Virus record (IMG/VR): IMGVR_UViG_3300006052_000004
Location: 1-62,857 of that record
Reading direction: 5' to 3' (one strand)
From: a virus
DNA: 62,857 nucleotides
Below are positions 3,884 to 56,837 of this stretch, piece after piece (positions within the stretch are counted from its first letter, which is position 1; every line of letters starts with the position of its first letter). The notes under the pieces are model-generated. The model saw nothing but the letters and a program-made list of their open reading frames with translations. It ran no database searches and had not been told where the DNA came from. A program made the position numbers and the translations under genes.

Positions 3884-3890
3884 GGAACAA

Positions 3891-5880: not shown

Positions 5881-5888
5881 GAGATGGT

Positions 5889-6329: not shown

Positions 6330-6338
6330 GAGATGTGA

Positions 6339-7598: not shown

Positions 7599-7622
7599 TC
7601 ACACGGCTAAGGAGGCTAAACC

Positions 7623-8033: not shown

Positions 8034-8218
8034 GTGGGCGTGGTACAAACAATAATCCGCCCGAATGGTATGTAATCATTCGGGCGGCCCGATACCTAGG
8101 TGTCGCTCCATGGGAACTCGAGGATCAGTGCGTGGAGTGGATATATCGGGCATTGACTGCGCAGAACTGTGAAGACTGGCATAAGTCATTGATTGACGCA
8201 CGAAAGAACCGACACTAA
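7989..8218 (+). CDS. -1 frame extension giving a gpGT-like frameshift product (slip at CCGGGGGAA, 7989-7997)
   Basis: The -1 frame is open only from 7958 and stops at TAA 8216-8218, overlapping the tape measure ATG. It encodes ...PEWYVIIRAARYLGVAPWELEDQCVEWIYRAL. A G5 run is the only homopolymer slip site in the permitted window. Confidence 0.55.
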
Positions 8219-22386: not shown

Positions 22387-22860
22387 CTACGGAAGAACCG
22401 GCCGGGCCCTGTCAAGGAAGTCATTCCATCCGAGCCATAGTTGGCCACCATGACCGTCTGTTTCACGTGTCAATCTCATGTATGGTGTAGGTCGATCAGT
22501 CTGTTTGTCAAGGTATCGTATCCAGAATAGGCGCATTTCACGTCGTGTCTCATCATATTCGGCGGCAAGCGCCAAAGCGTGTGCCTCCGCGTATAGGTCT
22601 AGCCACCTTATCTGATGGGACGCGTAGAGGGGCCACACAGGCGAGTCGGCGTACTGTGGGGCCCTTCTATCAAATGATTTGACCTCCAGACATACACCTA
22701 GACCATTCGGCGCCACGCCGGTTATATCGCATGGCTTCTTACCCACCGATCCGTCGGCTATCCTCCATAGGCGCCAACCCTCAGAGTTGGCGCCTTTCCA
22801 TAGTGGTGCATACTGGTCAGACTCTCGCATCCTCTCCCTCCTTGTATACCCATTCAACAA
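22387..22860 (-). CDS. Putative PD-(D/E)xK nuclease (resolvase-like)
   Basis: D...(G)...LEVK arrangement (CDITGVAPNGLGVCLEVKSFD). Last gene of the leftward region. Confidence 0.4.
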   Translation of the reverse strand: MLNGYTRRERMRESDQYAPLWKGANSEGWRLWRIADGSVGKKPCDITGVAPNGLGVCLEVKSFDRRAPQYADSPVWPLYASHQIRWLDLYAEAHALALAAEYDETRREMRLFWIRYLDKQTDRPTPYMRLTRETDGHGGQLWLGWNDFLDRARPVLP

Positions 22861-23038
22861 GCTCGAAGTGATTAGGTATCTTCATCACTTGTGGGGCAAT
22901 GATACAGAAGACCACATTCGTACCGTTGTATATAATACCGACCCGGTGATACTTTGACGAGTCAAGTATATCACGTGCCTTGTCTCTCGCTTCTTGGATC
23001 GTGCGGATGAGTGTGGAACTTGAGCTAGGCTTTCGCAT
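22817..23038 (-). CDS. Hypothetical small protein
   Basis: 73-aa ORF linking the hydroxymethylase homolog and the nuclease genes, with short overlaps on both sides. Confidence 0.4.
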   Translation of the reverse strand: MRKPSSSSTLIRTIQEARDKARDILDSSKYHRVGIIYNGTNVVFCIIAPQVMKIPNHFELVEWVYKEGEDARV

Positions 23039-23987
23039 CTGGCCAGTTCCATCGTAAGATGTCGCACCATTGTTTTACCCAATCACTTCCCTCATGATCG
23101 GATTGAAACTTGTATGCCTTCCGCTCCTTCACCACGAAGTGATCGTGCATATCAAGTAAGAGTTTATGTGCAAGTGCCTGCGTGAACCTGATGTCATCAC
23201 CGGCGAATGATGTTGGCATCCTCGGCGGGTTTGGTAGATATGCCTCATGGTCAGGGTTGTTGATGTTCGGTGGTCCCTCACCATTGTTCCCATTCAGGTA
23301 GTAGTGCATAGATACTGCCACATGCCAATAGCTTCCGATACGTATATCGAGTGCATTGGCCATGGCAATCTGTATGGCGCACATCGCGGCAATATCGTAT
23401 GGAACGCCCCAGTTCAGGTCGTTGCTCCTGATGTTGACCATCGCCGACAGCACGTATATCTGTTGGGCATCACCACCATCTGTACTGAGGATGTTACGCT
23501 TTTCGGTGAAGAATTGCATACCAACCATGCACGGACTCTCTTGGTATGAGTGTTCGGTATGGCGTTCCCATATTGGGATAAAGGCCTGCCGGCGGTCCGG
23601 GTTCTGCTTGAGTGTGTCGAATGCACGTGGCAGGCCGTACCTGAAGCCATCGCCATACTTCACCATGCCGAATAACTCACCCGAGTTATGGTCCGTGAAA
23701 TTCCTGTAGTTGCTATTGAGCTTGGTCAACAGTTCGGCATACTCACGACCCATGTATGTACCCCAGCCGGCTATGTACCCAAGTGTCTCTGCCACCCAGA
23801 AACGATAGTTCATTCGGCGTGGTATACCGGTGAACAGACTAAGTTCGGGCCGTGTGATCTTCATCATGAACGGCCGTACTTCCATACAATCGGCACCACG
23901 ATGTGTGAACACCGTCCCTGTCTGCCTGACGTGCTGGTACATGCCCCAGTATGCCCTGTTCATCGTTGGGAATACAAGCGTTGTCAT
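23025..23987 (-). CDS. Thymidylate synthase / deoxypyrimidine hydroxymethylase family enzyme, predicted dCMP-specific (T4 gp42-like)
   Basis: QNPDRRQAFIPIW, catalytic Cys in ESPCMVGMQFF, and IRSNDLNWGVPYDIAA, where Asp replaces the ThyA Asn (LGLPFNIAS). ATG at 23987 overlaps the deaminase stop (ATGA). The longer track ORF to 24464 is out-of-frame read-through. Confidence 0.7.
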   Translation of the reverse strand: MTTLVFPTMNRAYWGMYQHVRQTGTVFTHRGADCMEVRPFMMKITRPELSLFTGIPRRMNYRFWVAETLGYIAGWGTYMGREYAELLTKLNSNYRNFTDHNSGELFGMVKYGDGFRYGLPRAFDTLKQNPDRRQAFIPIWERHTEHSYQESPCMVGMQFFTEKRNILSTDGGDAQQIYVLSAMVNIRSNDLNWGVPYDIAAMCAIQIAMANALDIRIGSYWHVAVSMHYYLNGNNGEGPPNINNPDHEAYLPNPPRMPTSFAGDDIRFTQALAHKLLLDMHDHFVVKERKAYKFQSDHEGSDWVKQWCDILRWNWPDAKA

Positions 23988-24493
23988 TCTGGTGATATGC
24001 TCCTTCTCTCCCCGTTCCAGTATGAGCATGCCGCGATCATCGACAACTCGACGTTGCTCTGGCTGTACTCGACAGTTTGTATCATGCACTCGTCTCGCAC
24101 TATGTTGAACTTCAGCTCGTCCATATACTTCCATGGTACGCCGTCCCACAGCCAGACCACCCTGTGTATCCCGGCGTTGGCTACCTGCGCAAGACATGTG
24201 TGGCACGGCTTGAGCGTCACATAGCACGTGCCGCCGATAAGCGAGAATGGCGCCTTCACTATAGCGTTCAGCTCGGCATGCTGCACTATCGCGTTCTTGA
24301 GGTCCTTGTCGGCCCAGTTCTCTGGCGTGTCTGGGAAGCCCGTCGGAAAGCCGTTGTACCCCATAGACACAAGCCTGTTGGTGCTGTCGACGGCCGCCGC
24401 GCCCACCTTTCGCTCTGGGTCCTTGCTCATCGTCATGGCGAATGCAAGCGCGGCCCTGAGCCATGCGCGATCTATTCTCTCCTGCCTATCCAC
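23984..24493 (-). CDS. dCMP deaminase
   Basis: Zinc motifs HAELNAI and PCHTCLAQV. About 169 aa, the usual size. Confidence 0.85.
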   Translation of the reverse strand: MDRQERIDRAWLRAALAFAMTMSKDPERKVGAAAVDSTNRLVSMGYNGFPTGFPDTPENWADKDLKNAIVQHAELNAIVKAPFSLIGGTCYVTLKPCHTCLAQVANAGIHRVVWLWDGVPWKYMDELKFNIVRDECMIQTVEYSQSNVELSMIAACSYWNGERRSISPE

Positions 24494-24842
24494 TCATCGC
24501 CTCCTCTAATGCCATCTCGATCTCGACAACCTTACCGGCATATTCGTCGATACCTTCATCATCACCTGCGACACACCGTTTGAGTAGTACCGCATTGTAG
24601 ACCTGCAGGTCCATCCGTAGTCTTGCTACTGTCGGTGTGACAATTTCTACCTCACCATTCTGTAGTTGTTCGATTGTGACTTCTTTAAGGTCACACTCGT
24701 TTCTGACTATGCTACCCAGCTCGGGGACGTCAATGACAAACATCCGGCTCTTGAAGCGTCCCTCTACATTTTGTACGACTGCACCAAGGCAGTTCTCATA
24801 CGCATCACGCGGTTTGATTACCACGAGGTCCCCGACTTGCAT
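24486..24842 (-). CDS. Hypothetical protein
   Basis: 118-aa ORF tightly packed inside the nucleotide-metabolism cluster. Confidence 0.6.
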   Translation of the reverse strand: MQVGDLVVIKPRDAYENCLGAVVQNVEGRFKSRMFVIDVPELGSIVRNECDLKEVTIEQLQNGEVEIVTPTVARLRMDLQVYNAVLLKRCVAGDDEGIDEYAGKVVEIEMALEEAMSG

Positions 24843-24843
24843 G

Positions 24844-25338
24844 TCAGTCCTCCTTCATGATAGTGACGATGTCCGTACATAGATCACTCGTTGACACCGA
24901 TGATTGGTTTGATTTACGGACCATCTCATACTCGTTCGACAGATGATCTGCGAGAATGATCGCCTTTGCAGTTAAGTTCTGCTCGGGAGATAATGGCGAA
25001 CCATGCCGATGCTGATGTCTGCCACTATCATATTGGTCCACCGTCGCCGACAATCGCCATAGGGCATGATGCAGATGTTCGACCGGGTCACCGTCCTCTT
25101 CAGACGTGTCTCCGGCCAGGAAGGCGAGTATGTGCATCATCGAGTGGTTGAGATGACTCTCTGGCCCGATCGCCTGCCATGTATTCGCTCCATATTTTGC
25201 TGCGCCACGGCCTGCGATCGTTGCCATAGCCTGCATTGCGAATGGGTGGAGTAGATCGTATCTTGCATCTACATGGCTCTGCGGTGGTCCATCAGTTGTG
25301 AGAGGTGTGTCCTTGCCTGCTCCTCTTATTTTGCTCAT
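24844..25338 (-). CDS. dATP/dGTP diphosphohydrolase-like N-terminal domain protein (DUF5664-like)
   Basis: ARYDLLHPFAMQAMATIAGRGAAKYGANTWQ...HILAFLAGDTSEEDGDPVEHLHHALWRL resembles that domain family, recognised from memory. Confidence 0.5.
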   Translation of the reverse strand: MSKIRGAGKDTPLTTDGPPQSHVDARYDLLHPFAMQAMATIAGRGAAKYGANTWQAIGPESHLNHSMMHILAFLAGDTSEEDGDPVEHLHHALWRLSATVDQYDSGRHQHRHGSPLSPEQNLTAKAIILADHLSNEYEMVRKSNQSSVSTSDLCTDIVTIMKED

Positions 25339-25570
25339 TCTTCTGTCTCTCCTGTTTCTTGTATAATGCCTCTGTCAACTCCCAGTCGACATCGGTATCA
25401 ACCTGCAGCAATCCATTGCCTTCGATCTTGAACCACATATTGTGGTCCATGCCGACCGTCCCTATTACATTACGCAGGTGACCGTTGTCATCGATCACCT
25501 GCCTACCGATGAATAGGACGGCCTCGCTCTCTTTGAGACGTGCCGACTTCTCCACTAGTCTCCCTCCCAT
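25292..25570 (-). CDS. Hypothetical protein
   Basis: 92-aa ORF. Its 3' end overlaps the next gene by 47 nt. Confidence 0.45.
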   Translation of the reverse strand: MGGRLVEKSARLKESEAVLFIGRQVIDDNGHLRNVIGTVGMDHNMWFKIEGNGLLQVDTDVDWELTEALYKKQERQKNEQNKRSRQGHTSHN

Positions 25571-26223
25571 CCGTCATCGAGAAGTGCCTGCCGTATCTCC
25601 TCTTGTGGTGGTACCCATCCCTCTGGCTTGAGCACCTTACCTTTGTCATCCTTACGGTGGCCTGTCTTCATCATGTTGTACTTGTGCACGATGTTAAAGT
25701 ATTTCGTGGCATCGAGACCGAATGCCTCGAATGCACCGATGGTCACGTACATCAGGTCACAGAGTCCATCTACCGCCTCAACGAGGTCGCCCGCATCGAT
25801 CGCGTCGGCCGCCTCGTTAGCCTCTTCGCGAATGAGTTTCTCACGGAGGATACTGTCACGTATCATCGGCGGGTCGCCGAGCTCGCCGAGTACTTTATGG
25901 TTACCGCGCACCTGGTCTGTTTTTGTCATGAAGTCACGGACCTGTGTCTGCATCGGGTTCTCACCGAGGGCCATCAATGGTGGTATGAATTCTGTCTGCA
26001 CTGTGCCTCCTTTAGGTATCACCGGTAGGGATGCCTGTATGATATGTTGTACTGTCCTACAATTGATGAACTCTTGCTTTGTGATGATCGGTTCGACTTC
26101 GTGGCCACAACCAGGACAGGCCTGATGTGTACATCGTTCTGCCACGAGTTTGGTTATCGGTACCCGTATCTTTATGCTGGAAAATTCATCGGATCCGGTG
26201 CCACCGGTTCTTTCGTCTGACAT
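25555..26223 (-). CDS. MazG-like all-alpha nucleoside triphosphate pyrophosphohydrolase with N-terminal Cys-rich segment
   Basis: EEANEAADAIDAGDLVEAVDGLCDLMYVTIGA...HKYNMMK is a MazG-type signature. ATG at 26223 is preceded by GGAGG, but the start is uncertain. Confidence 0.65.
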   Translation of the reverse strand: MSDERTGGTGSDEFSSIKIRVPITKLVAERCTHQACPGCGHEVEPIITKQEFINCRTVQHIIQASLPVIPKGGTVQTEFIPPLMALGENPMQTQVRDFMTKTDQVRGNHKVLGELGDPPMIRDSILREKLIREEANEAADAIDAGDLVEAVDGLCDLMYVTIGAFEAFGLDATKYFNIVHKYNMMKTGHRKDDKGKVLKPEGWVPPQEEIRQALLDDGWEGD

Positions 26224-26438
26224 TCTGTGTGTTCCTCCACGGTCTCCTGCTCCTGTTTGAAGACATCTTCCACTTTGTGGTTGCCAGGCATAGGTGTGAA
26301 TATGTGTACTTCTGACACATCGGGATTGTCTGCGAAGATACACCGTACACCTCGCAGTTGTTCTGGCCATTCGGCATAGTATACGCCGATGTGACCGTAT
26401 GAACTATCATTCACACCTTGCATGTGTGTGACCTTCAC
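26172..26438 (-). CDS. Hypothetical protein
   Basis: 88-aa ORF. It overlaps the predicted MazG start by 52 nt, so one of the two starts is probably wrong. Confidence 0.4.
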   Translation of the reverse strand: MKVTHMQGVNDSSYGHIGVYYAEWPEQLRGVRCIFADNPDVSEVHIFTPMPGNHKVEDVFKQEQETVEEHTECQTKEPVAPDPMNFPA

Positions 26439-27673
26439 TTGTCTATTCCCTTCCTCTTAGGTGTTGAGACTATCGTTGCGTTCTTCGATGGTACCTTTTG
26501 CATAGCATTCGCGAATGGTTGCTTAAGAGAAGGTATCTGTTTGGCAATTGCGTCAAGGCCGGTGACCCTTACGCCGAATGCCATCGGCAGTATCTCGTTG
26601 AGTGTGGCGATCGCATTCGGGTCTGTCTCGACCTGTGCATTCGCCCAGCCATTCATCGCACCCCACACGGTGCGGAAGTCTGCCTCTCTTTGTTCTTTGA
26701 ACTCAAGGGAGTAGACATTGTCGCCAGACACCAGTCGCCCTCCTGCCTCCTTTATCTCAAGTTTGAGTTTCGCTTCAAGCAGTTCTTTCTCTGCTTCAAC
26801 GACCTTGAGTATCGCCTTCATCTGCTCGAGTTTTGATGCCGTGGTGGCCGTGGTCAGCCTGGCTTGCAGGCTTGACACAAGCCCGTTGGTTGCCTCGGTG
26901 TACAATGGGCAACTGAATTTGATTGGGCATCTGCCACAGTATTGATTAATATGGCGAGGCCATATATTTGTAAACGAATGCTTCAGTATCTTGGTCCATA
27001 TATTCTCGATATGCTCTACTAATGGTTCATCATCGTCGGCGGATGTCTCCCATTCTACATATGAGCCGAGGTTTGGATACCCGATACGGAACTTGTACAC
27101 GCTGTAACCTGGCCATTCCTTACGGGCCATCCAGGCATATAACAGTTGCTGCAACTGTATCCGCCAGAACTCCACACCGTCGAACTTGCGGTTCGTCTTG
27201 TGGTCGAGGATCAGTAAGCCATTGCCGGGTATCTCTGTGACAAAGTCCATCTGTCCGCTGATCGGGGGCATACCATTCACGATCGGATAGAACAATCTCT
27301 CTTCTATGGCGATAGGATTGATAGCTTGTATATCTGCGACTGAGGCCATGTAGTCATGCACTGCCTGGTGTTCATGTTCAGGCACGATCTCCCAATTCGT
27401 CAGCATGTTACCTGCCTCGGTGCCGGCATGTAACTGCATCAGGAAGTCCTCAAGTATCGCATGGACCGCGGTCCCGATCGCGGCCGCGCCTGTCCTATGC
27501 TCCTCCTCCGGCTCGCCGGGTGTCAGGTACTTGACAGCCCACGAGTATGGGCATTCCTCGAATGCCTTGAGTGATGTGACCCTGATGTAGTTCATCTGTC
27601 GCGGGTCTATCAGCCCGGGCAGATAGTCCGGATCTAACTCAACACTGTTCACTATCTGTGCTTGTTCGATCAC
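26435..27673 (-). CDS. PD-(D/E)xK exonuclease, Cas4/RecB-like, with C-terminal extension
   Basis: LLILDHKTNRK core motif and Cys cluster YCGRCPIKFSCPLY, a Cas4-type Fe-S signature. Confidence 0.7.
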   Translation of the reverse strand: MIEQAQIVNSVELDPDYLPGLIDPRQMNYIRVTSLKAFEECPYSWAVKYLTPGEPEEEHRTGAAAIGTAVHAILEDFLMQLHAGTEAGNMLTNWEIVPEHEHQAVHDYMASVADIQAINPIAIEERLFYPIVNGMPPISGQMDFVTEIPGNGLLILDHKTNRKFDGVEFWRIQLQQLLYAWMARKEWPGYSVYKFRIGYPNLGSYVEWETSADDDEPLVEHIENIWTKILKHSFTNIWPRHINQYCGRCPIKFSCPLYTEATNGLVSSLQARLTTATTASKLEQMKAILKVVEAEKELLEAKLKLEIKEAGGRLVSGDNVYSLEFKEQREADFRTVWGAMNGWANAQVETDPNAIATLNEILPMAFGVRVTGLDAIAKQIPSLKQPFANAMQKVPSKNATIVSTPKRKGIDK

Positions 27674-30600
27674 CTATTGCCTCCTATGTAGTAGTTCATA
27701 GTTCTTCAAGAACATCATCTCACCGGCCCACCATCCTTGTATAGCAATGAAGTCGCCAAGCTTGATGCAATTCCTAAATGATTGTGCCAGTTGTGTCTGC
27801 TTATATGGTATGCGGAATTCGATCGCACCGGTCTCATCTTCACAGACGTATATTATCGTCTCCCCCTTGAAGTGTCCTGTGCGGGCCTTCTTCTGGATTG
27901 CTGTCACATATCCACACACCAAAGAGTCGCCGCTTAACTTCTCCCCTTCGGGTAAGTCCGATGGGCGTGCCAATCCTAGCTGCTCCCGTATCTTCTGTTC
28001 TTGAGGACCGGTAAATTGCACAGGCATCCACGGAGCAAGTTCCACCATTGCCGGGACATTTTGCCGCATTGCCCCTGTCATGCCAGCCTCGTGCAACTTG
28101 TAGTAGAGTCCAACAGGTAGGTTTTGCTGCAGGTGTTTCCAGTCTCGGTATGGGCCTCCAGCCATTATTTTCTCTGCGGTATTCTCCCCAATACCGCTTA
28201 AGTTGCGCCATCCCCCGACTATCAAACCAGGTCGTGGTGAGTAGAAAGAACTCCGCGAGAGAACGGGGTCTATCATCTGTACCTCGCCACCATGACGCCT
28301 GAACTCCCGTATAAGTCTTTTCATCAACAACTGATTGGAAGAACTGGATGCACCCTCGTGCTTCAAGTATGACTCGAAATAGGCGGCCGGATAGTGTGAC
28401 ATCATATACAACATCCAGTACCCGACGATCCCATAGGTCACGCAGTGAGCCTTGTTGAACGAATAGATGCCGTGGGCTTTTATTGCTTCCCACCAGTGTT
28501 TGGCCTCTGACTCGGTGCACCCATTCTCCATGGCGCCCCGGACGAAATCGTCTCCGTACTCCGCCCCAAGTTCTTTTCCATGAAAAGAAGCATTTGCTAT
28601 TCGCTTTCGCAATTTCTGGACGCGATCCATTGGTATCTTGCCGAGTCGATTGCATATCTTCATCACCTGTTCTTGATACAGAAGGACACCATATGTTGGC
28701 CTTACGATGTCGGCAGCGAGCGGATGAACCCCTGTAAGAAACTTCTGAAAAGCCTGTGGATTGAACTTGTTGTCTTGGTAGAGTGGCACGAAGTCAGCGG
28801 CTCCAGGCCTACATAGAGCCGACACTGCGTAGATTTCGTCAAACCTATCAAGTCCGATCTGACTTCCAATTCTAATCGCAGCCCCATCGAGTTGGAACAC
28901 ACCGGTAACACGACCAGTCTTAGCGAGTCTGTACACTTCTGCATCATCGAACCTCAGGTTGTAGAGCCATGACATATTCGCCCCGATTGCTCTCACTGCA
29001 TCGGCGAGCACATCATACTGCATAACGGTCAGTAGATCGAGTTTGAGAAAGCCCAGGTCCATCGCACCATGCTTATCCACCGATGAAACACGTGGTTTAC
29101 CTGGCTGTTCACACACCGCGATCGTGTTAGTCAGTGGTTCAGATGAGATGAGAACACCTGCAGCATGGATAGTGTTCTGCCTGGCCTGTCCAACGAGTTG
29201 GTCGATCATGCCGAAGATCGGGTATTTGTGCAAGACAGCAAGTGCTGCCGGGTCCCTGAGGTTGGCGATCTGTAGGTCCACATCATCATCTTTGCTATCG
29301 AGTGCCGCCGATAGAGGACTGTATTCTTCTCTCGGTATACCATAGACTGCCGCCACATCTTGGACTGCGACCCTCGCACGTATTAGTCCAAGTGCTAGAA
29401 TTTGGCAGACGTTGTCCGCACCATATTTCTTGGATATATATTCGTACACCGGTTGCTTCATCTTCGTCTCGAAGTCGACGTCGATGTCTGGAGGGTCCAT
29501 ACGACTCACATCCATGAACCGGTTGAAGTCTAAGTCGTGCAATACGCTGTTCGTCTCCGAACAACCTAACAACCATAACAGTAGACAACCACCGGCTGAA
29601 CCACGACACATCACCAGGGTATCTTGGGCCTTCGCCCATCGACATATATCTGTCAAGCATAGGATATAGTGACAGAACCCTTTCTCTTTCATAAGAGAAA
29701 ATTCCATATGGGCGCGTTCGCGGTAGATGCCTTCGTTTGTATCGTCGATCCATCCCTGTGCCCTCCTGTGTCTAAAACCATCTTCTACCCATGACCACAG
29801 TACGGTTGCATCATCTTTCTCACCGATGCCAGGGAACAGGAGTTGTTTCGCATGTGGTATTTCAACCTCGCAGTTGTCTGCGATGATGCCGGTGTTATGT
29901 ATGGCACCGATGAGCATTTGTTCTCTTTCAGGTGTCATCATACCTAACATCTGATCGTATACACGCTTGAGTATATCTACCTCGTTGCCGTAGTGTTGGT
30001 ACCCCTCAAGCTTGATCTTGCGCTCTTTGTCCATCATGGTTGTGCGCAGACCTATGCAGAGCATCGTGTCTTCGCCTATATGGTCTTCTGGACGTGGGAA
30101 ATGCGCATCACTTGTCATCACCATCGGCGTATTCGTGGCCATCGCTATGTCCATCAGTACCGGGAAAGTCTCTGTACTGATGCCTAGTCCTGGCTGTGGG
30201 ATGAGTTCGATGTAATAGTGTTCTATCTGTGCTCTTCGTTCCAATATGAAGTTATATGCTGCCTCTGGTCCCTTCTTGAGAATGAGTGTCGACGGGTAAC
30301 CGCCGACACAACCAGACAGGACACAGAGACCTTCTTGGTACTTTGCAAGTGTCTGCCAGTCTATGCGTGGCTTATAGTAGAAACCATCATGCCATGAGAG
30401 AGTAGACAACTTGAGTAGATTGGTATACCCATTCTGTGTCATCGCGAATACAGTCACATGCCGTTCACCATCTACACCGAGAGACTTCTGATGCTTGCCT
30501 TCCTTGACAAACATATTGTCTACGATGTAGAACTCACAGCCATAGATCGGCTTGATACCAGCTTTTATCATTGCCTTGCCGACAGGGACATGTGCGAAGA

Positions 30601-30730
30601 TATTACCGTGATCGGTTATGGCAGATGCCTTCTGGTCTAGCTCTTGCAGGCGCGAGACTATCTGGTCCGGCTTGCCATACCCATCGAGGAATGAATATGT
30701 GGTATGTGCATGTAGATTAACGAAAGTCAT
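27674..30730 (-). CDS. dnaE: DNA polymerase III alpha subunit (DnaE-type, PHP domain)
   Basis: The N-terminal PHP motif FVNLHAHTTYSFLDGYG...AITDHGNIFAH, the protein's length (about 1018 aa) and its overall architecture fit DnaE. ATG at 30730 overlaps the upstream stop (ATGA). Confidence 0.9.
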   Translation of the reverse strand: MTFVNLHAHTTYSFLDGYGKPDQIVSRLQELDQKASAITDHGNIFAHVPVGKAMIKAGIKPIYGCEFYIVDNMFVKEGKHQKSLGVDGERHVTVFAMTQNGYTNLLKLSTLSWHDGFYYKPRIDWQTLAKYQEGLCVLSGCVGGYPSTLILKKGPEAAYNFILERRAQIEHYYIELIPQPGLGISTETFPVLMDIAMATNTPMVMTSDAHFPRPEDHIGEDTMLCIGLRTTMMDKERKIKLEGYQHYGNEVDILKRVYDQMLGMMTPEREQMLIGAIHNTGIIADNCEVEIPHAKQLLFPGIGEKDDATVLWSWVEDGFRHRRAQGWIDDTNEGIYRERAHMEFSLMKEKGFCHYILCLTDICRWAKAQDTLVMCRGSAGGCLLLWLLGCSETNSVLHDLDFNRFMDVSRMDPPDIDVDFETKMKQPVYEYISKKYGADNVCQILALGLIRARVAVQDVAAVYGIPREEYSPLSAALDSKDDDVDLQIANLRDPAALAVLHKYPIFGMIDQLVGQARQNTIHAAGVLISSEPLTNTIAVCEQPGKPRVSSVDKHGAMDLGFLKLDLLTVMQYDVLADAVRAIGANMSWLYNLRFDDAEVYRLAKTGRVTGVFQLDGAAIRIGSQIGLDRFDEIYAVSALCRPGAADFVPLYQDNKFNPQAFQKFLTGVHPLAADIVRPTYGVLLYQEQVMKICNRLGKIPMDRVQKLRKRIANASFHGKELGAEYGDDFVRGAMENGCTESEAKHWWEAIKAHGIYSFNKAHCVTYGIVGYWMLYMMSHYPAAYFESYLKHEGASSSSNQLLMKRLIREFRRHGGEVQMIDPVLSRSSFYSPRPGLIVGGWRNLSGIGENTAEKIMAGGPYRDWKHLQQNLPVGLYYKLHEAGMTGAMRQNVPAMVELAPWMPVQFTGPQEQKIREQLGLARPSDLPEGEKLSGDSLVCGYVTAIQKKARTGHFKGETIIYVCEDETGAIEFRIPYKQTQLAQSFRNCIKLGDFIAIQGWWAGEMMFLKNYELLHRRQ

Positions 30731-31176
30731 TCTGCATCCTCTATCACACCCATACATACGTTGATCGTGCCATGCCGTGTCACTGACACACCGTTGAAAG
30801 AAAGTTGTATCGATAGACCGTAGGCCAACTTGATGTCGATCTTTGTATTGGCTCTCTTGTCATCTTTGCCGCCGTAGACCTCTAGTCGTGCTGTCTCGCA
30901 TGGGTATAACGTCCCGTTAACGCAGACAAACTTGACCTCGAATGGCTCGATGCGAAGTTCGCGGAGCAGGTCGCGATCAGGACTGGCATTGAATGCAGGT
31001 GTTTTCCATATCTGTAGGTCTTTCAGATGCCGTCTAATATCACCGAACTGTACGATATCGGCGATGGATGTGACAACCTTTGTCGGTCCGAACATCCTTG
31101 CTGCATTGTCGGCGATGAATGTCAGACCTTCATATCTTGTCTTGGCAAGTATGAGGTTCATGCGTGGTGGTTTCAT
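30727..31176 (-). CDS. Hypothetical protein translationally coupled to dnaE
   Basis: 149-aa ORF with ATGA overlap to the polymerase gene. Confidence 0.6.
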   Translation of the reverse strand: MKPPRMNLILAKTRYEGLTFIADNAARMFGPTKVVTSIADIVQFGDIRRHLKDLQIWKTPAFNASPDRDLLRELRIEPFEVKFVCVNGTLYPCETARLEVYGGKDDKRANTKIDIKLAYGLSIQLSFNGVSVTRHGTINVCMGVIEDAE

Positions 31177-31808
31177 TTCTTACCTCTCTCTGACGGTCGC
31201 CGGCCTGTCAAACGAATGAACTCTGCTTCAAGTATAGTCTGTTGCCTCTCTACTCGATCATGGTTCATCTGTGCTACAGAACGCCTACGCCATAGAGGAC
31301 AGGCGGCAACCGCAGGGAAAATCGTCCACCGTTTGGATAAAGAAGCTCTAGTGCATGAGCCAATCTCATGGCTACAGATGTTTGGGCCTTCCCAGAAAAG
31401 TGACGAACAATTACCACATCTCTTATCGGCCTCTGCTGCTTCAGTCGCAACCCTTCTCTTCTCCGCATCGCCTGGCATGTCACCCGGCCGCGAATACGGA
31501 TCTTTCGGTTTCGCATTGTTCTTGACCTCCATGGTCTGCAGTTCTTCACGCCCTTCGATCAATGCGGTTGAGAATATGCCACCGCCCCAAAAGATGAAGC
31601 GACTGTCTGTTCCATGCTTTTTTACATCGTTGTGCATCGCCGAATAGAGTATCTGGTCTGGTTCGGCGCCCCATGGGTTTTCCCATAGGCCTGTCTCTGT
31701 GATGACCTTTGTCAGGTCTTTGTAGTGTATCGGTTCGCCTAGTTCCGACAGTAGTTCTGCGACCATCTCCAACAATTCTTGTGTCCTTGTTGCCTGCGCC
31801 CTTGCCAT
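31173..31808 (-). CDS. Putative DNA-binding protein (HARE-HTH-like N-terminus, Cys-rich C-terminus)
   Basis: LSELGEPIHYKDLTKVITETGLWENPWGAEPDQILYSAMHNDVKK...RFIFWGGGIFS resembles HARE-HTH. This is a weak call. Confidence 0.4.
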   Translation of the reverse strand: MARAQATRTQELLEMVAELLSELGEPIHYKDLTKVITETGLWENPWGAEPDQILYSAMHNDVKKHGTDSRFIFWGGGIFSTALIEGREELQTMEVKNNAKPKDPYSRPGDMPGDAEKRRVATEAAEADKRCGNCSSLFWEGPNICSHEIGSCTRASLSKRWTIFPAVAACPLWRRRSVAQMNHDRVERQQTILEAEFIRLTGRRPSERGKK

Positions 31809-31891: not shown

Positions 31892-32257
31892 CTATCCTGC
31901 GTCAGGATTTCCGATTGGTTCCTCCGGGTTCGACATCCACATAGGTTGTTCTTTCTTCCTATGTGCCTTGTCGAAGTCGATTGCACTTAGTATGATCTGT
32001 AGTACCTCCGTCGGGAAGCCGTCGCTGAGACGTTCGACTGTAATAGGCACCTTCTCGCCGTTCCATTCGACGTCCCATGCGGCCACCACTATGACAAAGA
32101 TAGTGATAAAGTTCTGTATCACTTCGGCATTGCTCGTCGGATCTGGCATGATTGGTATATGTGCCATCGGTCTATATGTGACGAGTATATCATACCGTCC
32201 ATACAGCTTCACCGGTATGGTGAACTCTGTGTCCATCACCTGTTTAAGGTCCGGCAT
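31892..32257 (-). CDS. Hypothetical protein
   Basis: 121-aa ORF overlapping the primase-helicase stop by 14 nt. Confidence 0.55.
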   Translation of the reverse strand: MPDLKQVMDTEFTIPVKLYGRYDILVTYRPMAHIPIMPDPTSNAEVIQNFITIFVIVVAAWDVEWNGEKVPITVERLSDGFPTEVLQIILSAIDFDKAHRKKEQPMWMSNPEEPIGNPDAG

Positions 32258-35198
32258 TGCTTCCTCCTATCGCCTTCTTATTTGCTATATACTCCTCAAG
32301 CAGCCTCACGAATGACGGTGTCAGTTCGTAGAGGTCGCGCCCTTTCGCCGACTGATATATGCACCGGTTCGCAGATAGTGTCTGCATGCACATATGCACA
32401 TCGGTAAACTTCATCGGTATGATGGTTGAGAATGATCGCTCTGAGAATGCGATCATGCGGACCATCTTCTCACCAAGCACGATTGGGTTCTGACTTAGCA
32501 CATTATCAAGCAAGGCTATGATCTTCGCTGGCTCTACGATAGAGCGATCCACCTTCACCTGTTGCGAGTACCTGTCATAACCGAAGCATGGTTTGTCATA
32601 CCATGTAGAGAAGAGCGAGCATGCTGTGAATACATGCTCTGGTCTGATGATGAGCATCTCTCCACTTGTATCAGATGAAAATACCTGTGTCGCGACCGAG
32701 ACCGCCAATTTGGCGATCCTCATGCGTTGTGCCGACGGTTCGACAAATGGTATCTCTGAGTCATACTTCTGGCACATTGCCTCTGCCATCTGTACAACCG
32801 CCTGTTCTGCACCATCTGCCCATACTATCTGGTGTGGCCTTCTTGTCCATGCCCATGATAGTAGTGCGCGGTGTGCCTCGTGTGACCATCTCGGCATGCG
32901 TGGCTGCCGAACCGAGTTGAGTATATGGGCAGGCACATCACCTTGTGCCACAGCCATCGCCATATCAAACCTAGCGATGTCCTCTGGCTGTGGTATCAGG
33001 CGACGAGTGATCTCCACGCCATACCCGCCAATGTCTATCATCATCCTGCCCACGCCTGGGTTGGCCATGACTATCAATGGTACACGGCCAAGCATTGTTG
33101 CCTGGGCGGCCTTCATTATCTGCACGAGACCAGACGAACGTGTAGATGAGAGAAAGTCAAGTATAGAACTTTCGCCCCACTTTGTCGTGTTGAACTCGTC
33201 CAGACATATAGGTCCCGCGCCATCTTGTTGTGGGAATATGCCAGCATTGACATACCTCTCACCGGTGATTGCAGATGTTTCGACAGAGCCGAGTAGACCC
33301 GCAGGTGTCTGCATTTTTGCGTCTACGAATATACCGGTTCTGTACATGGCAGCCATCTTGTTAAACGTCTCGGACTTACCACACCTGGTGTCACCAATAA
33401 TCATTGCCTCAAGCCAACCGCGTTGGTACAGGCTACCATTGAATGGAAACTCCAGCACCGAATGGAACACCGATCTCAGCATAAGATGCAGGTCCATGCG
33501 ATGGTAGATCATGGTCTGTGATGCAGATATGTCGTCGGCTACATCGACCAGTGCTGACTGCACCGTATTCAATGGTATGAACGAGTCGAGCATTGCTCGT
33601 ATCTCAGGCGTCATCTTGAAGTCGCGTAGTGCAGATGTTTTCTGTTTGAATGAGTCGACGACGATTACCTGCTTCTGGTTGCTAGGTAATGGCCATACAT
33701 ACCCGGTCAATGAGTAATCCACATTCTGCTTGATAGTTGGCGCGTCCTCTGACAACAGTATGAGTGCCTCATACCTACTGTTGTCGTTGAATGATGACAT
33801 CTTCTCCTGTTGGTCACTGAGTGTGTTTTTGATTGATGCGATAGCCATATCCGACCATGTTTGCACATCGAAGTTTATCGCCGGACATCTAGCAGGTATA
33901 TGGAAGTGTTGTTTCAGTGCGGCATCTCGTTTGGTATCATCGATCATCACCAGTTTCAATGCCACCTGTAGACGTGAGTCGATACTGAAACGTGCATTTC
34001 CATGCCATTGTTTGTGCATCACACATTTGTCACACATCGGGAAGCCATTACCTGGGCATGTCGTAATTATGTCCTTAGGTATCGAATACTTCGTCTCTGA
34101 CTTGCCAACTATGTGACCATCGAAACCTATGCGTGTTCTTGCATTCCTCGATGTGAGTGCATTACTGAATTCGACATGTACTGGTTCCATGTCAAAAATC
34201 GTCGACTCCATATTGGCAACTTGTGCCGCACCGAGTACCTTTGCGATCTCATGTTGTACCTGTTCGACAGAGTAGCCTATACCGAATAGGTACATGATGA
34301 AATCAGAGGCATCAGCGTTTGATGGACGACCTTCCCACAGTGGTAGAGAACACATCCGTACATCTTTTGCACCACGTCGAATAGCTGCTAGTGCGGCCTC
34401 TTGTGCCTCCTGACCTTTGGCATCGGCATCCATCCATATGTAGACACGTTTGCCATGCCACCACAATCCTTCTGGTACCGGTGAACCTGCGCCCATTGTT
34501 CCCGAACATCCATTGAAGCCGAGCGAACGCAGACTAATTGCATCAGGTTCACCTTCAACGAGTATGAGCCATGGATCGTTCCATGATATGTACGGGAACA
34601 GAAAGTTACCACCTAGACCGATCGCCTGCCACAACATCTTGACATCGGCGCCTGGTCTATATAGTTTTGCATTGACAATCTTGCCATGATGGTCATGTAA
34701 TGGGATGACAAGCCTATTCTTGTCTGGGTCCCATCCGATGCCTAACTTCGCCAATGTCTCTCTATACCATGGTTTACGTCTCTCCCACAACTTGTGACCT
34801 GGACTCTCATGGTCCATTAATCTTGCCTGTGTTGCAGCCATCCATTCGAGATTGATAGGTGTTGCTAATCCTAGTTCAATCCTGAATGTTCTCTCCGTAC
34901 CAGGGAAGTCCGGAATTGGCTTCCCACTTGGTTCGACCGGTGCATTCATGAGGGCCATGAACTGCACGATGTTACCACCCTTCAGACCTATCAGTTGTTC
35001 TGTATGCCAGTCTCGCCAGAGACCGGTCATAACGTTTAGTTCAAACGACGGGTTGTGGTCGTTCGCGAACGGAAACGGTGACCTACAGAATACCTCTCCT
35101 TTCGGTGAGGGTTGCTTAAGACCTTGGGGAAAATAACGACTGTACACCACCGGCCAACCAATGCGCACGCAAGCATCTTCAATGTCGCGGGGTAACAT
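32244..35198 (-). CDS. Bifunctional DNA primase (TOPRIM) / MCM-like AAA+ helicase
   Basis: TOPRIM motifs LILVEGEPDAISL and VYIWMDADAKGQEA. MCM-like Walker A IGDTRCGKSE, Walker B ICLDEFN and Arg-finger-like IARFDM. Confidence 0.8.
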   Translation of the reverse strand: MLPRDIEDACVRIGWPVVYSRYFPQGLKQPSPKGEVFCRSPFPFANDHNPSFELNVMTGLWRDWHTEQLIGLKGGNIVQFMALMNAPVEPSGKPIPDFPGTERTFRIELGLATPINLEWMAATQARLMDHESPGHKLWERRKPWYRETLAKLGIGWDPDKNRLVIPLHDHHGKIVNAKLYRPGADVKMLWQAIGLGGNFLFPYISWNDPWLILVEGEPDAISLRSLGFNGCSGTMGAGSPVPEGLWWHGKRVYIWMDADAKGQEAQEAALAAIRRGAKDVRMCSLPLWEGRPSNADASDFIMYLFGIGYSVEQVQHEIAKVLGAAQVANMESTIFDMEPVHVEFSNALTSRNARTRIGFDGHIVGKSETKYSIPKDIITTCPGNGFPMCDKCVMHKQWHGNARFSIDSRLQVALKLVMIDDTKRDAALKQHFHIPARCPAINFDVQTWSDMAIASIKNTLSDQQEKMSSFNDNSRYEALILLSEDAPTIKQNVDYSLTGYVWPLPSNQKQVIVVDSFKQKTSALRDFKMTPEIRAMLDSFIPLNTVQSALVDVADDISASQTMIYHRMDLHLMLRSVFHSVLEFPFNGSLYQRGWLEAMIIGDTRCGKSETFNKMAAMYRTGIFVDAKMQTPAGLLGSVETSAITGERYVNAGIFPQQDGAGPICLDEFNTTKWGESSILDFLSSTRSSGLVQIMKAAQATMLGRVPLIVMANPGVGRMMIDIGGYGVEITRRLIPQPEDIARFDMAMAVAQGDVPAHILNSVRQPRMPRWSHEAHRALLSWAWTRRPHQIVWADGAEQAVVQMAEAMCQKYDSEIPFVEPSAQRMRIAKLAVSVATQVFSSDTSGEMLIIRPEHVFTACSLFSTWYDKPCFGYDRYSQQVKVDRSIVEPAKIIALLDNVLSQNPIVLGEKMVRMIAFSERSFSTIIPMKFTDVHMCMQTLSANRCIYQSAKGRDLYELTPSFVRLLEEYIANKKAIGGSNAGP

Positions 35199-37045: not shown

Positions 37046-37810
37046 CTAAGGTTTGACTGGTTCGCCGTGTGTACTTGCGACCATTCTCGCAAGGATGTCA
37101 TCGAGCACTGGCCATTCATACCTGTTCATCGCCGATGAACGATCTTTGTAATGGATGAGTGGGTCAGGCCCGAAATCAAGGACGCGTTGGACGCCCATGA
37201 TCTGATTATTGTTCGCATCTACCTGCCCGGTGGGACCGGCTCTTGCGATTAACCTGCAGATAAATGAGAAGTGTTTCGCATACTCGAATGCGAAACGTCC
37301 ATCGAACGATGGTCGCCAGCATAGGTTACCCACCGTAGGATCAAACTTCTGTATTTCATGACAGGTGTAGATGAGATTGCATGGGAGATAACGTAACATC
37401 ACTGTAGTGTTCTCCATGACAGTACGAATAATGCCCCAGTCGCGTTGCTCAGGGGTCATGTGTTTCGTCTTGTCTGCAGTCTCTTTGATGATGATACGCT
37501 GAAGCTCGGTAGCAGAATCGATAACCACTAGTTGGAAGTAACGTATATTACCCTTCGCAACCAACCAATCTATCGCTGCATCATAGTCACCGACAGTCTG
37601 TATCTTCCATACAAACACATTGTCAAGTGCCATCCCGAGTTTACGACGTCTCGCCATCGTCGTATTCACACCGATGTCCACATCCAGAATGAATGTAGAT
37701 AGCTTCGAGATTGTCGCGAAGCTCGTCTTACCACATCCTGGTGGACCGTACACAACGCCTTGCCAGAATGATTGCGTCATATCTGACAGTCGCATCGGTC
37801 CATTCTGCAT
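37046..37810 (-). CDS. Sak4-like RecA-fold ATPase (AAA_24 family), recombination/annealing
   Basis: Walker A VVYGPPGCGKTS followed by FILDVDIG. ATG at 37810 is preceded by AAGGAGG, so the track start at 37828 lies inside the RBS. Confidence 0.7.
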   Translation of the reverse strand: MQNGPMRLSDMTQSFWQGVVYGPPGCGKTSFATISKLSTFILDVDIGVNTTMARRRKLGMALDNVFVWKIQTVGDYDAAIDWLVAKGNIRYFQLVVIDSATELQRIIIKETADKTKHMTPEQRDWGIIRTVMENTTVMLRYLPCNLIYTCHEIQKFDPTVGNLCWRPSFDGRFAFEYAKHFSFICRLIARAGPTGQVDANNNQIMGVQRVLDFGPDPLIHYKDRSSAMNRYEWPVLDDILARMVASTHGEPVKP

Positions 37811-37856
37811 GCAAGGGCCTCCTTCCATGCTGCACCAAAGGCAGGTTCGATACTAA

Positions 37857-38538: not shown

Positions 38539-38750
38539 CCCTCCATTGATACTATGATCGCCATTGGTACCATCGTGCTCGGTGGTGTATTGCGTATGAT
38601 GTCGTATTCAATGCGCACGACCCTGTACTCCACCCCGTCGTTAGTGAGGTTCCTAATCACGTCTCCTTTCATCGGTATGGTGTACACGCTGCAGTACCTC
38701 AGGTCCCTGCCTCGCGTGTCCCTGAATATCACCTGCATTGGCCACATCAC
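38535..38750 (-). CDS. Hypothetical protein
   Basis: 71-aa ORF with 4-nt overlaps on both sides. Confidence 0.55.
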   Translation of the reverse strand: MMWPMQVIFRDTRGRDLRYCSVYTIPMKGDVIRNLTNDGVEYRVVRIEYDIIRNTPPSTMVPMAIIVSMEG

Positions 38751-40803: not shown

Positions 40804-41844
40804 TTACTCCCATCCGCTTGGAATGTGCAGCTTGTAGTGCGGCTCCAACCATCCATTGTATGCCGGGATGGTAATACACTTCGGCTTCCAACAACCCACA
40901 ACCTCGGGTGCCTGACGTATCGTGTTACGCGCAAATTTGAAGAACTCACCGAGACACTGTAGCAGGTTTGGCCCGTCCAGGCTGATCGACGTACCATACC
41001 CAAGCCATAAGGACCTGAACCCACGCTTCTGCCCGAGCTCATAATGCTGTTTATAGTAGTCGCCGAGGCCGTGCAATGCCCTCTGGATTGTGCGATCATC
41101 ACCTTGTACACCCATAAGCATGAGACCGGCAAGTGCATGAATACCTACATGCTCGAAATGCAGACGTGGCGACTCGTCTTCCTCACATAAGATATTGCAT
41201 GTCGGCACAATCCGCCGTGACCTATTTCGCCATATTGGCAACATCCAGTCGATCACGACCTCCCATACACAATCGGCGTGCATGCCTGGTATCTGATGGA
41301 GAAATCGGATGAGTGTAGAGATGTCACCTTGATCCTTGATTGCTAGTGTCTCAAGGTTGTTCAGTGACTCGTATGCACCGAGAAGCATTGCTGCGAACCG
41401 TTCACCTTTGGTAGGTGGTTCGATGCCTTCTTCTGGCTCATAGTGTGGCATCGTGCGACCGAAAGGCTTCTGCTTCTTCAGCAGCATATCATCGAGTGTT
41501 ATGCCGATCGCCATCATGTAGTCTTCGCTACCATGTGCGGCCTCGGTGACGAGCTCTTTGACCTCTTCGTACGAGCCAATGTTGTTGAGCATCCGGAAGG
41601 TGATCTGATGTGCGACGATCTGCCAGAATTGCTCGTGCTCGGGGTTCTCCATGATCTCCTCGACGCAGTACTGCGTGAAGAGGTCCTGCTCGCGGTAGAC
41701 GTTGCGCCTCGCGGCGAACTCCGGGGCCTGTGTACCGAGGTGTACTACGTTCTCGCGGTACCACTCCTCCTGCCTCGTTGCCACATAGTCCCAGAACGCC
41801 TTCTCGACGTTCTCATTTGGTGCAACCCAAAAATCATGCGCCAC
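40804..41844 (-). CDS. Hypothetical helical protein; possible DNA base hypermodification family (aGPT-Pplase-like)
   Basis: The N-terminal FWDYVATRQEEWYRE...FAARRNVYREQDLFTQY resembles the W..I..R..I...R....F.NVYRE.D..T pattern I recall for that family. The call rests on memory only. Confidence 0.3.
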   Translation of the reverse strand: MAHDFWVAPNENVEKAFWDYVATRQEEWYRENVVHLGTQAPEFAARRNVYREQDLFTQYCVEEIMENPEHEQFWQIVAHQITFRMLNNIGSYEEVKELVTEAAHGSEDYMMAIGITLDDMLLKKQKPFGRTMPHYEPEEGIEPPTKGERFAAMLLGAYESLNNLETLAIKDQGDISTLIRFLHQIPGMHADCVWEVVIDWMLPIWRNRSRRIVPTCNILCEEDESPRLHFEHVGIHALAGLMLMGVQGDDRTIQRALHGLGDYYKQHYELGQKRGFRSLWLGYGTSISLDGPNLLQCLGEFFKFARNTIRQAPEVVGCWKPKCITIPAYNGWLEPHYKLHIPSGWE

Positions 41845-55646: not shown

Positions 55647-55689
55647 GACAACGCTACCGCGACAACAAAACTACACCATCGGCGAAACA

Positions 55690-56618: not shown

Positions 56619-56619
56619 G

Positions 56620-56787: not shown

Positions 56788-56837
56788 GTTCGTTCCCTTT
56801 CTGTAGATGCGGGTTAGTTACCTCCCCACATCAACTT

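Follow-up and report, generated by a model that had tools for sequence, protein, structure and literature searches.

Which base, if any, is modified in the DNA of an uncultured phage that encodes a thymidylate synthase (TS) homolog with aspartate, instead of asparagine, at the base-specificity position? The question is raised by IMG/VR virus record IMGVR_UViG_3300006052_000004, of which the whole 63-kb stretch (positions 1 to 62,857, hereafter the window) was analysed and is an essentially complete phage genome; a contig with identical proteins measures 63,292 bp. Its minus strand carries, at 23025..23987, the gene of a 320-amino-acid (aa) ThyA-family enzyme, which is predicted from a PF00303 match, residue alignments and an AlphaFold 2 (AF2) model to be a deoxycytidine monophosphate (dCMP) C5-hydroxymethylase. 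An earlier note on this DNA had read the gene and its neighbours as a T4-like cytosine-modification module, an interpretation that our analysis partly supports, being right in substance and wrong in pedigree. Known residue rules favour the conversion of dCMP to 5-hydroxymethyl-dCMP (5hm-dCMP) without proving it, and virion DNA carrying 5-hydroxymethylcytosine (5hmC) in place of C is the outcome that we consider moderately probable.

The enzyme matches PF00303 with E = 3.1e-14 (53.2 bits, cut-off 24.3), and its AF2 model has a predicted local distance difference test (pLDDT) score of 92.9. Residues were mapped by HMMER against human TS, by profile alignments against bacterial TSs and MilA, by hhalign of the family profile with T4 gp42, Xp12 TS and SPO1 gp29, and by MAFFT, with equivalent positions given for E. 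coli TS (EcTS). All alignment methods concur that Cys153 corresponds to the catalytic Cys146 of EcTS, and the four methods independently place Asp198 (in VPYDIAA) at the position of EcTS Asn177 (in LPFNIAS) and T4 Asp179. Both the catalytic Cys and the replacement of the ThyA Asn by Asp, as read in the earlier note, are therefore borne out by the translation and the alignments. Glu150, in the context S-Y-Q-E-S-P-C, occupies the position of EcTS Leu143, three residues N-terminal of the catalytic Cys (the -3 position), and Asp190 that of EcTS Asp169. The catalytic and nucleotide-binding residues R30, E67, Y111, R133, C153, R187, S188, D190, H228 and Y230, equivalent apart from the Cys to EcTS R21, E58, Y94, R126/127, R166, S167, D169, H207 and Y209, are kept and are invariant in the family. 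Conservation of the phosphate-binding arginines and of Glu67, Tyr111, His228 and Tyr230 suggests that the enzyme is active. Only 17 family members (34-100% identity) were retrieved from 5.8 billion proteins, and all of them have Asp198, Cys153 and the R-S-N-D190 segment; Asp at the 177 position is also found in a more distant IMG/VR relative (L016; the L numbers are our handles for compared loci). The -3 position is Asp or Glu in 14 of the 17 members, Ser in two and Gly in one. As for the segments that the earlier note thought common to the enzyme and T4 gp42, QNPD.RR is indeed positional but NSNY is not: T4 N-S-N-Y96 aligns with V109-K-Y111 of the window enzyme, the N91-S-N-Y94 of which aligns with the EcTS W80 region.

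The enzyme is neither a T4 gp42 relative nor a canonical ThyA. It is a member of the TS superfamily that has the gp29/MilA architecture with a C-terminal helical domain, as follows from its profile alignment with gp29, its fold match to MilA and its low scores against the NCBIfam TS models. The best tblastn matches among cultured phages were SPO1 gp29 and the SP10 deoxyuridine monophosphate (dUMP) hydroxymethylase, at ~27% identity. When the family profile was aligned by hhalign, SPO1 gp29 gave E = 1.2e-18 over 202 columns, Xp12 TS 5.5e-12 over 174 columns and T4 gp42 5e-7 over 68 columns; phmmer of the enzyme against gp42 reached only E = 1.3, and gp42 structures were missing from the best 60 PDB sequence matches. 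In Foldseek searches with the AF2 model, E values went down to 7e-15 against MilA and TS structures. The top match was MilA, with a template modelling (TM) score of 0.68-0.70 across ~320 columns, whereas TSs aligned over only ~235-260 columns; BFVD returned only generically named TS/dCMP-hydroxymethylase proteins. Against the NCBIfam TS equivalogs, the enzyme reaches 25-35 bits where 108-405 are required, and the TS-type C-terminal folate-closing tail is absent, a MilA/gp29-type helical domain standing in its place. The "T4-like" label therefore has to be given up for the enzyme, which is nearer to SPO1 gp29 and MilA, and likewise for its partners, as the deaminase resembles those of Xp12 and PBCV-1 rather than T4 Cd and neither pyrophosphohydrolase resembles gp56.

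Its nearest characterised relatives differ from it in the following ways. SPO1 gp29 and the SP10 enzyme have the RSNDL(H/N)WG motif, the acidic -3 residue and the long C-terminal helical extension in common with the window enzyme, but carry Asn (uracil) at the specificity position, at which the window family has invariant Asp. Asn is also found there in PhiJL001 gp24 and in the enzymes of L019 and L020, so that the window enzyme with its Asp198 lacks the mark of a dUMP hydroxymethylase; the gp29-type dUMP hydroxymethylases are nevertheless its closest clade by profile. MilA (PDB 5JNH, 5B6D), the CMP 5-hydroxymethylase of mildiomycin biosynthesis, has Asp at both the 177 and the -3 positions and is the best full-length structural match, but is only 17-18% identical and is a bacterial secondary-metabolism enzyme preferring the ribonucleotide CMP.

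The base specificity of this superfamily can be switched by single residues. Exchanges that swap the dUMP/dCMP preference are N177D in E. coli TS, N229D in the L. casei enzyme and D179N in T4 dCMP hydroxymethylase (dCH), and Asp177 is enriched in metagenomic contigs with modified cytosine (PMC8670742). In T4 dCH, Asp145 activates the water attacking the exocyclic methylene, and the D145N variant makes no 5hm-dCMP (PMC6400193); Glu is regarded as equivalent to Asp at this position (PMC6400193; PMC13326640). In our alignment, the -3 residue is Asp in the hydroxymethylases T4 gp42, MilA, SPO1 gp29, SP10 and PhiJL001 gp24, Leu in EcTS, Asn in Xp12, PaMx28, RDJL Phi1 and JWT, and Glu in the window enzyme. 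Two elements of the dCMP hydroxymethylase signature (Park et al. 2019, PMC6400193) are accordingly present, namely Asp at the 177 (T4 179) position and an acidic -3 residue. The Xp12 TS has been found experimentally to be a 5-methyl-dCMP (5mdCMP) synthase (bioRxiv 10.1101/2024.12.05.627091). The methylases of its clade end in a TS-like tail, PEVIE or PEV(I/V)(E/A), and most adjoin a gene for dihydrofolate reductase (DHFR), which is carried by the methylase modules of Xp12, PaMx28 and RDJL Phi1. The window enzyme has the Asp177 of these methylases, but not the Asn at -3, the PEVIE tail or the neighbouring DHFR. The flavin-dependent 5-hydroxy-dCMP synthases (RB69 gp48, DLP3 gp80) carry D169N, whereas the equivalent Asp190 is retained and family-invariant here. 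Because Asp stands at 177 and Glu at -3, Asp169 is retained, and both the TS tail and a DHFR are absent, we infer dCMP as the likely substrate and favour 5hm-dCMP as its product; between 5hmC and 5-methylcytosine (5mC), which the earlier note had left open, the residue rules point to the former.

The gene partners of the enzyme are compatible with a role in cytosine modification. The deaminase gene (23984..24493, minus strand) precedes it directly and encodes a 169-aa dCMP/dCTP-deaminase-family protein; its stop codon and the ThyA-like start codon share the sequence ATGA, with a GAAGGAG ribosome-binding site 11 nt upstream, which agrees with the coupling claimed in the earlier note. The protein matches PF00383 (E = 3e-16, 59.5 bits, cut-off 25) and phrog_174 (E = 4e-39), and the zinc-binding motifs HAE...PCxxC can be read in its translation as HAELNA...KPCHTC. 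Its best PDB match is 7FH4, the bifunctional dCMP/dCTP deaminase of PBCV-1 (E = 1.6e-18); T4 Cd gave E = 6e-10. On C-modified contigs, 70% of such deaminase genes have a TS gene no more than 3 kb away, versus 6% on unmodified ones; for 85% of those TS genes, 5hmdC or 5mdC is the predicted product, and PRA-PH is among the top domains co-localised with these deaminases (bioRxiv 10.1101/2024.12.05.627091). Given this co-localisation on C-modified contigs, the deaminase-TS arrangement in the window is the one described in that preprint, in which some of the deaminases prefer 5-methyl-dCTP or 5-hydroxymethyl-dCTP and the trait of 5mC-selective deaminases (mSCD) is polyphyletic.

Two nucleoside triphosphate (NTP) pyrophosphohydrolase-type proteins are encoded a little upstream on the same strand, as had also been recognised in the earlier note. 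An all-alpha protein of 164 aa (24844..25338; phrog_801) matches PF18909, "dATP/dGTP diphosphohydrolase N-terminal", a MazZ-like family, with E = 2.6e-14 (53.4 bits, cut-off 27) and is 60% identical to its counterpart in L010; phmmer against the PDB found no match. It is a candidate dNTP-to-dNMP enzyme by family. A PurZ/2-aminoadenine system, considered on account of this MazZ-like match, was rejected, as the Pfam scans revealed no adenylosuccinate-synthase-like open reading frame (ORF). The second protein, of the MazG/PRA-PH type and ~222 aa long (25555..26223), matches PF01503 (E = 7e-13, 49.2 bits, cut-off 21.3) and phrog_671 (E = 5e-26), the same PHROG as the NTP pyrophosphohydrolases of the Xp12 clade. 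It is 53% identical to its counterparts in L008 and L010, its nearest structure is Deinococcus DR2231 (E = 6e-14), and we regard it as a candidate dCTPase/dUTPase. Its frame is open to 26370, and the ATG at 26223, which a start-codon scan found to be preceded by a GGAGGA site, is probably the start. BLASTP detected no similarity of T4 gp56 to either window pyrophosphohydrolase (E > 1).

Modules of TS(Asp177), deaminase and NTP pyrophosphohydrolase have already been described for C-modified phages, and the window enzyme comes from a rare gp29/MilA-like lineage. The C-modified contigs found by MetaGPA likewise carry PF00303 with Asp177, PF00383/PF14437 and PF01503 within ~3 kb, with the deaminase in cis with the TS homolog and 5hmdC or 5mdC as the predicted product (PMC8670742; bioRxiv 10.1101/2024.12.05.627091). 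The window differs from them in its rare TS lineage, which at ~27% identity to gp29 lies outside the set of tested enzymes, in the additional PF18909 pyrophosphohydrolase and in a Pol III alpha rather than Pol A context. To the T4 pathway (gp42, gp56, Cd, gp1 and glucosyltransferase), the locus would be analogous in its logic: an all-alpha NTP pyrophosphohydrolase for dCTP to dCMP, an Asp-type TS homolog with an acidic -3 residue for dCMP to 5hm-dCMP, and a dCMP deaminase for the dT branch. It differs in that gp42 is very distant, that the enzyme has no Ser94 equivalent and an added C-terminal helical domain, and that no dNMP kinase, glucosyltransferase or td gene was found in the window.

What the window lacks bears on the later steps. 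Pfam scans of all its ORFs of at least 60 aa found no deoxynucleoside monophosphate (dNMP) kinase, glycosyltransferase, DNA methyltransferase, TET/JBP or carbamoyltransferase, and no DHFR, ThyX or second ThyA. Six-frame phmmer searches of the window with T4 gp1, the SP10 gp186 kinase domain, Xp12 DHFR and the glycosyltransferase-like and ThyX-like proteins of L016 gave no match, so that the absence of a recognisable glycosyltransferase or dNMP kinase noted earlier was upheld. As candidates for a hidden dNMP kinase, Walker A motifs occurred only in the primase-helicase, the AAA_24 protein, the terminase and, as a chance-looking site, a 109-aa ORF. If 5hm-dCMP is made, a host enzyme or an unrecognised protein must phosphorylate it, and this step is the weakest link of the pathway; in E. 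coli, TS homologs yielded no more than traces of the modified base unless a phage dNMP kinase was present (PMC13326640).

One further gene of the window may be connected with modified pyrimidines. At 40804..41844 (minus strand), 17 kb from the operon and inside the replication module, a 346-aa protein is encoded that is a stand-alone homolog of HMUDK_hel (PF18723), the helical domain of the 5-hydroxymethyl-dU (5hmdU) DNA kinases (5-HMUDK). Its own match to PF18723 is sub-threshold (E = 2e-4, 21.1 bits, cut-off 25). An exhaustive HMMER search collected 16 distant relatives, and PF18723 is matched by 14 of these 17 proteins, query included (best E = 1e-50). By hhalign, the family profile matches residues 310-598 of SP10 gp186, the 5-HMUDK activity of which has been validated biochemically, at a probability of 99.7% and E = 1.4e-26. 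The P-loop kinase domain PF18748 is missing: there is no Walker A motif in the protein, and the gp186 N-terminal domain has no six-frame match in the window, where Pfam scans found no kinase domain of this type either. Searches of GenBank phages with the protein by tblastn found nothing, a word-indexed homolog search returned the protein alone, and the family profile gave nothing meaningful against the PDB. GenBank annotations name the PF18723 family aGPT-Pplase clade 1; aGPT-Pplase was reportedly first predicted by Iyer et al. in 2013. The same stand-alone protein adjoins a SNF2 helicase in two related Pol III alpha phages (L014 and L015, with flanks of at most 10 kb).

Elsewhere, wherever the TS residue was checked, the PF18723 family accompanies Asn-type (uracil) hydroxymethylases. 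In SP10, gp186 adjoins an Asn-type hydroxymethylase. The cultured alphaproteobacterial siphophage PhiJL001 (L021, AY576273, 9007..16979) has four relevant genes within 8 kb, namely gp19 (aGPT-Pplase1/HMUDK_hel), gp22 (T6-like glucosyltransferase), gp24 (Asn-type gp29-like hydroxymethylase) and gp30 (PBCV-1-like dCMP deaminase), suggesting a modification derived from 5-hydroxymethyluracil (5hmU); its tail genes resemble those of the window. Two IMG/VR loci, L019 (5755..9570) and L020 (9941..13968), are thymidine-hypermodification clusters. In the former, two neighbouring ORFs separately encode the 5-HMUDK kinase domain (245 aa) and the helical domain (325 aa), and they adjoin genes for a GATase-AADT fusion and an Asn-type hydroxymethylase; the latter has a helical-domain protein and an Asn-type TS with no detectable kinase. 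In phiRSL1, the gene next to a family member carries the annotation deoxyuridylate hydroxymethyltransferase. In the window, the HMUDK_hel protein occurs alongside an Asp-type enzyme, the only TS homolog present. This pairing gives mild support to a hydroxymethyl over a methyl product, and the 346-aa protein may read or process hydroxymethyl-pyrimidine DNA. We know of no HMUDK_hel-type partner for 5hmC.

A number of observations weigh against 5hmC as the outcome. The third element of the hydroxymethylase signature, a Ser or Thr two residues before the catalytic-base Tyr (Ser94-x-Tyr96 in T4), is missing from the window enzyme, which reads Val109-Lys-Tyr111; since SPO1 gp29 (Ala-Pro-Tyr) has no counterpart of Ser94 either, the residue may be peculiar to T4-clade enzymes. 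At -3, three of the 17 enzymes of the family carry Ser or Gly. With its counterpart in Xp12, a 5mC phage, the deaminase shares 46% identity (E = 8e-30), and in 5mC phages including Xp12 the deaminase has been proposed to make dTTP from 5-methyl-dCTP (bioRxiv 10.1101/2024.12.05.627091). The habitual company of the PF18723 family is with uracil-type hydroxymethylases, and no dNMP kinase for 5hm-dCMP was found in the window, one being needed for efficient incorporation in T4-type systems. Finally, DR2231, the nearest structure of the MazG-like protein, is one that we take to be of the dUTPase type, not a dCTPase.

The most serious competitor is a scheme of the Xp12 type, in which the enzyme would be a dCMP methylase, 5mC would replace C, and the deaminase would turn 5-methyl-dC nucleotides, probably the triphosphate, into dTTP, which would explain why no phage TS is needed. 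Asp198 would suit a dCMP methylase equally well, and the PYD[VI] motif is common to the window enzyme and Xp12 TS, which align at the hhalign E value given above. Besides the likeness of the two deaminases, 7FH4 is also the closest structure of the 5mC-selective mSCD-B5, and no second TS was found in the window. The modules of Xp12, PaMx28 and RDJL Phi1 come from siphophage genomes similar in size to the window and draw on identical PHROG families (NTP pyrophosphohydrolase phrog_671, TS phrog_160, deaminase phrog_174). Their order, however, is NTP pyrophosphohydrolase, TS(Asp), deaminase and DHFR, whereas in the window the deaminase comes before the TS and no DHFR is found, although a methylase oxidises folate. 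The TS is moreover of another clade: all four Xp12-clade enzymes examined combine Asn at -3 with a TS-like tail, against Glu and a helical C-terminal domain here, and the closest characterised relatives of the window enzyme are hydroxymethylases. On balance, we consider this scheme rather unlikely. Two other enzyme types can be set aside with more assurance. The TS fold and catalytic residues are present, and a deaminase, a dUTPase and a TS are a common nucleotide-salvage set of phages, as would be expected if a divergent conventional TS, fed dUMP by a dCMP deaminase and a dUTPase, simply supplied dTMP for canonical DNA. The exchanges of Asn177 for Asp and Leu143 for Glu, the missing folate-closing tail and scores far below every NCBIfam TS equivalog cut-off (e.g., 35 bits versus 327) make this very improbable. 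Even less credible is a flavin-dependent 5-hydroxy-dCMP synthase of the RB69 gp48 or DLP3 gp80 type, giving 5-hydroxycytosine DNA: N177D and L143E are common to those enzymes and the window's (PMC13326640), but the diagnostic D169N is absent, Asp190 being family-invariant, and no glycosyltransferase or NDP-sugar genes were found in the window.

A 5hmU outcome, possibly together with 5hmC, would arise if dUMP made by the deaminase were hydroxymethylated despite the Asp, or if the enzyme made 5hm-dCMP and the Xp12-like deaminase converted 5hm-dC to 5hm-dU nucleotides, and the kinase-less HMUDK_hel protein may then act on or bind 5hmU DNA. The closest characterised homolog of the enzyme is indeed a dUMP hydroxymethylase, SPO1 gp29, and the HMUDK_hel/aGPT-Pplase1 family goes with Asn-type dUMP hydroxymethylases in SP10, PhiJL001, L019 and L020. 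In addition, of 90 deaminases encoded in cis with an Asp-type TS, 7 were able to deaminate 5hm-dC in vivo (bioRxiv 10.1101/2024.12.05.627091). Two NTP pyrophosphohydrolases would fit the exclusion of both dCTP and dTTP. DR2231, presumably dUTPase-like, is the closest solved relative of one of them. Against this, Asp198 is family-invariant and all characterised natural Asp enzymes use a cytosine nucleotide, an adjacent deaminase is typical of Asp-type (C-modifying) and not of Asn-type modules, neither a 5-HMUDK kinase domain nor an amino-acid:DNA transferase was found in the window, and the HMUDK_hel gene lies apart in the replication module. We regard a 5hmU outcome as distinctly unlikely. Slightly less likely again is the combination of both, hydroxymethyl-pyrimidine DNA built from cytosine nucleotides alone, with C and T both replaced from one one-carbon transfer. 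The Asp-type enzyme may here make 5hm-dCMP and the deaminase may convert some 5hm-dC to 5hm-dU nucleotides, while the NTP pyrophosphohydrolases may exclude dCTP and dTTP and the HMUDK_hel protein may read or further modify the base, possibly 5hmC.

For the favoured outcome, 5hmC in place of C, the following pathway can be proposed. The block 22387..26438 (minus strand) would be a pre-replicative cytosine-modification operon directly downstream of the phage Pol III alpha gene. One or both of the all-alpha NTP pyrophosphohydrolases would hydrolyse dCTP, and probably dUTP, to the monophosphate, depleting the pool and supplying dCMP. Cys153 of the ThyA-like enzyme would attack C6 of dCMP, Asp198 would read and protonate the N3/N4 face of cytosine, and methylene-tetrahydrofolate would donate the one-carbon unit; Glu150 would then activate water against the exocyclic methylene, giving 5hm-dCMP without use of the folate hydride. 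The coupled deaminase would divert some dC nucleotides to the dU/dT branch, no phage TS having been found. The triphosphate would be made by a host kinase or an unrecognised phage kinase, and its incorporation by the phage polymerase would yield the modified virion DNA.

The genes considered above belong to a single close-packed block (22387..30757, minus strand) in which adjacent genes abut or overlap by 1-52 nt. In a window-wide ORF survey, the structural genes were found on the plus strand and the replication genes on the minus strand. The block begins with a DnaE-type Pol III alpha (27674..30757; Pfam, ~30% identity to phage DnaE-like polymerases) and a PD-(D/E)XK exonuclease (26435..27673; Pfam). 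Of the small ORFs for which the earlier note had suggested downstream modification steps, that of 118 aa (24486..24842) has counterparts in related phages, with BLASTP E values of 8e-14 and 5e-11 in L005 and L009 and positional analogues in L008 and L010, although it matches nothing in Pfam, PHROG or NCBIfam. That of 88 aa (26172..26438) is weakly conserved (BLASTP E = 2e-5 to 3e-6 against ORFs of L008 and L009). The 92-aa ORF (25292..25570), which overlaps both neighbours, has no family match and no BLASTP match among the relatives' ORFs, and is doubtful as a gene because it is not conserved. The earlier note had overlooked a conserved ORF of 147-157 aa (22387..22860, minus strand; database start 22830), which follows the ThyA-like gene after a 190-nt gap and is kept in all five metagenomic relatives (L005, L006, L008, L009 and L010) at 43-56% identity. 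Its invariant residues D36, D45, E59 and K61 (a D...D...E-V-K motif) suggest a small PD-(D/E)XK-type nuclease. It has no match in the PDB (profile search), Pfam or PHROG or, by tblastn, in GenBank phages, and its AF2 model is unreliable (pLDDT 49). This ORF and the HMUDK_hel gene at 40804..41844 are the better candidates for additional modification steps.

The order of the module is kept in the same five relatives: Pol III alpha, PD-(D/E)XK, small ORFs, (PRA-PH), (PF18909), a small ORF, deaminase, ThyA(Asp), a 150-180-aa ORF and convergent lysis/tail genes. In L009, an HNH_3 gene is inserted right behind the ThyA-like gene, and L005 (12134..12505) and L006 (14340..14723) have stand-alone response-regulator receiver domain (PF00072) genes among the lysis/tail genes. 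The more distant L016 (IMGVR_UViG_3300013104_000005, 3675..10927; 32% identity) has a deaminase-ThyA pair with Asp at both 177 and -3. Upstream of the pair, a C5 cytosine DNA methylase is encoded, and other proteins there weakly resemble a UDG-superfamily member, a glycosyltransferase, a dimeric dUTPase and ThyX; this locus may be a fuller cytosine-hypermodification cluster. The window phage has no close cultured relative, since the 12 kb surrounding the locus had no megablast match among GenBank phages.

Some features of the window concern gene calling and expression. The ThyA-like frame stays open upstream to 24464, with 159 stop-free codons before the start, yielding a 479-aa ORF (23025..24464, minus strand) that could mislead gene callers and may account for the missing link, in the protein database, between the exact 320-aa protein and the 63-kb contig; the true start is the ATG at 23987, and the longer ORF is spurious, overlapping the deaminase gene in another frame. 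When the block was scanned for promoters and terminators, promoter-like sites were scarcer than in shuffled controls and the module held no terminator on the minus strand, which is consistent with one transcription unit and otherwise uninformative. No tRNA genes were found in the window. The replication module comprises a 984-aa Toprim and MCM-like P-loop primase-helicase (32244..35198), an AAA_24 ATPase (37046..37828), a SNF2-family helicase (38747..40489) and a HARE-HTH protein (31173..31808), all on the minus strand, a set and order that recur in L006, L014 and L015. HNH_3 homing-endonuclease domains (PF13392) occur in three window ORFs, of which 47965..48393 and 50167..50634 are probably two. 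Where the early (minus-strand) genes give way to the packaging (plus-strand) genes, at ~55650..58000, there are only short unconvincing ORFs with no Pfam matches, and this segment may be a regulatory, origin or cos/pac region.

If the window phage does carry 5hmC, it would represent a lineage of siphophages that combine Pol III alpha with 5hmC DNA and have no recognisable glycosyltransferase or dNMP kinase. Its hydroxymethylase would have arisen within the gp29/MilA-like clade and not the T4 clade, by an independent Asn-to-Asp switch, and would put to another test the rules for residues 177, 143 and 169 by which phage DNA chemistry is predicted from sequence. DNA of the 5hmC type resists many restriction enzymes and biases sequencing libraries, and the deaminase belongs to a group that is being mined for methylation-sequencing enzymes. 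The kinase-less HMUDK_hel protein would in turn offer a clean system in which to ask what the aGPT-Pplase clade 1 proteins do.

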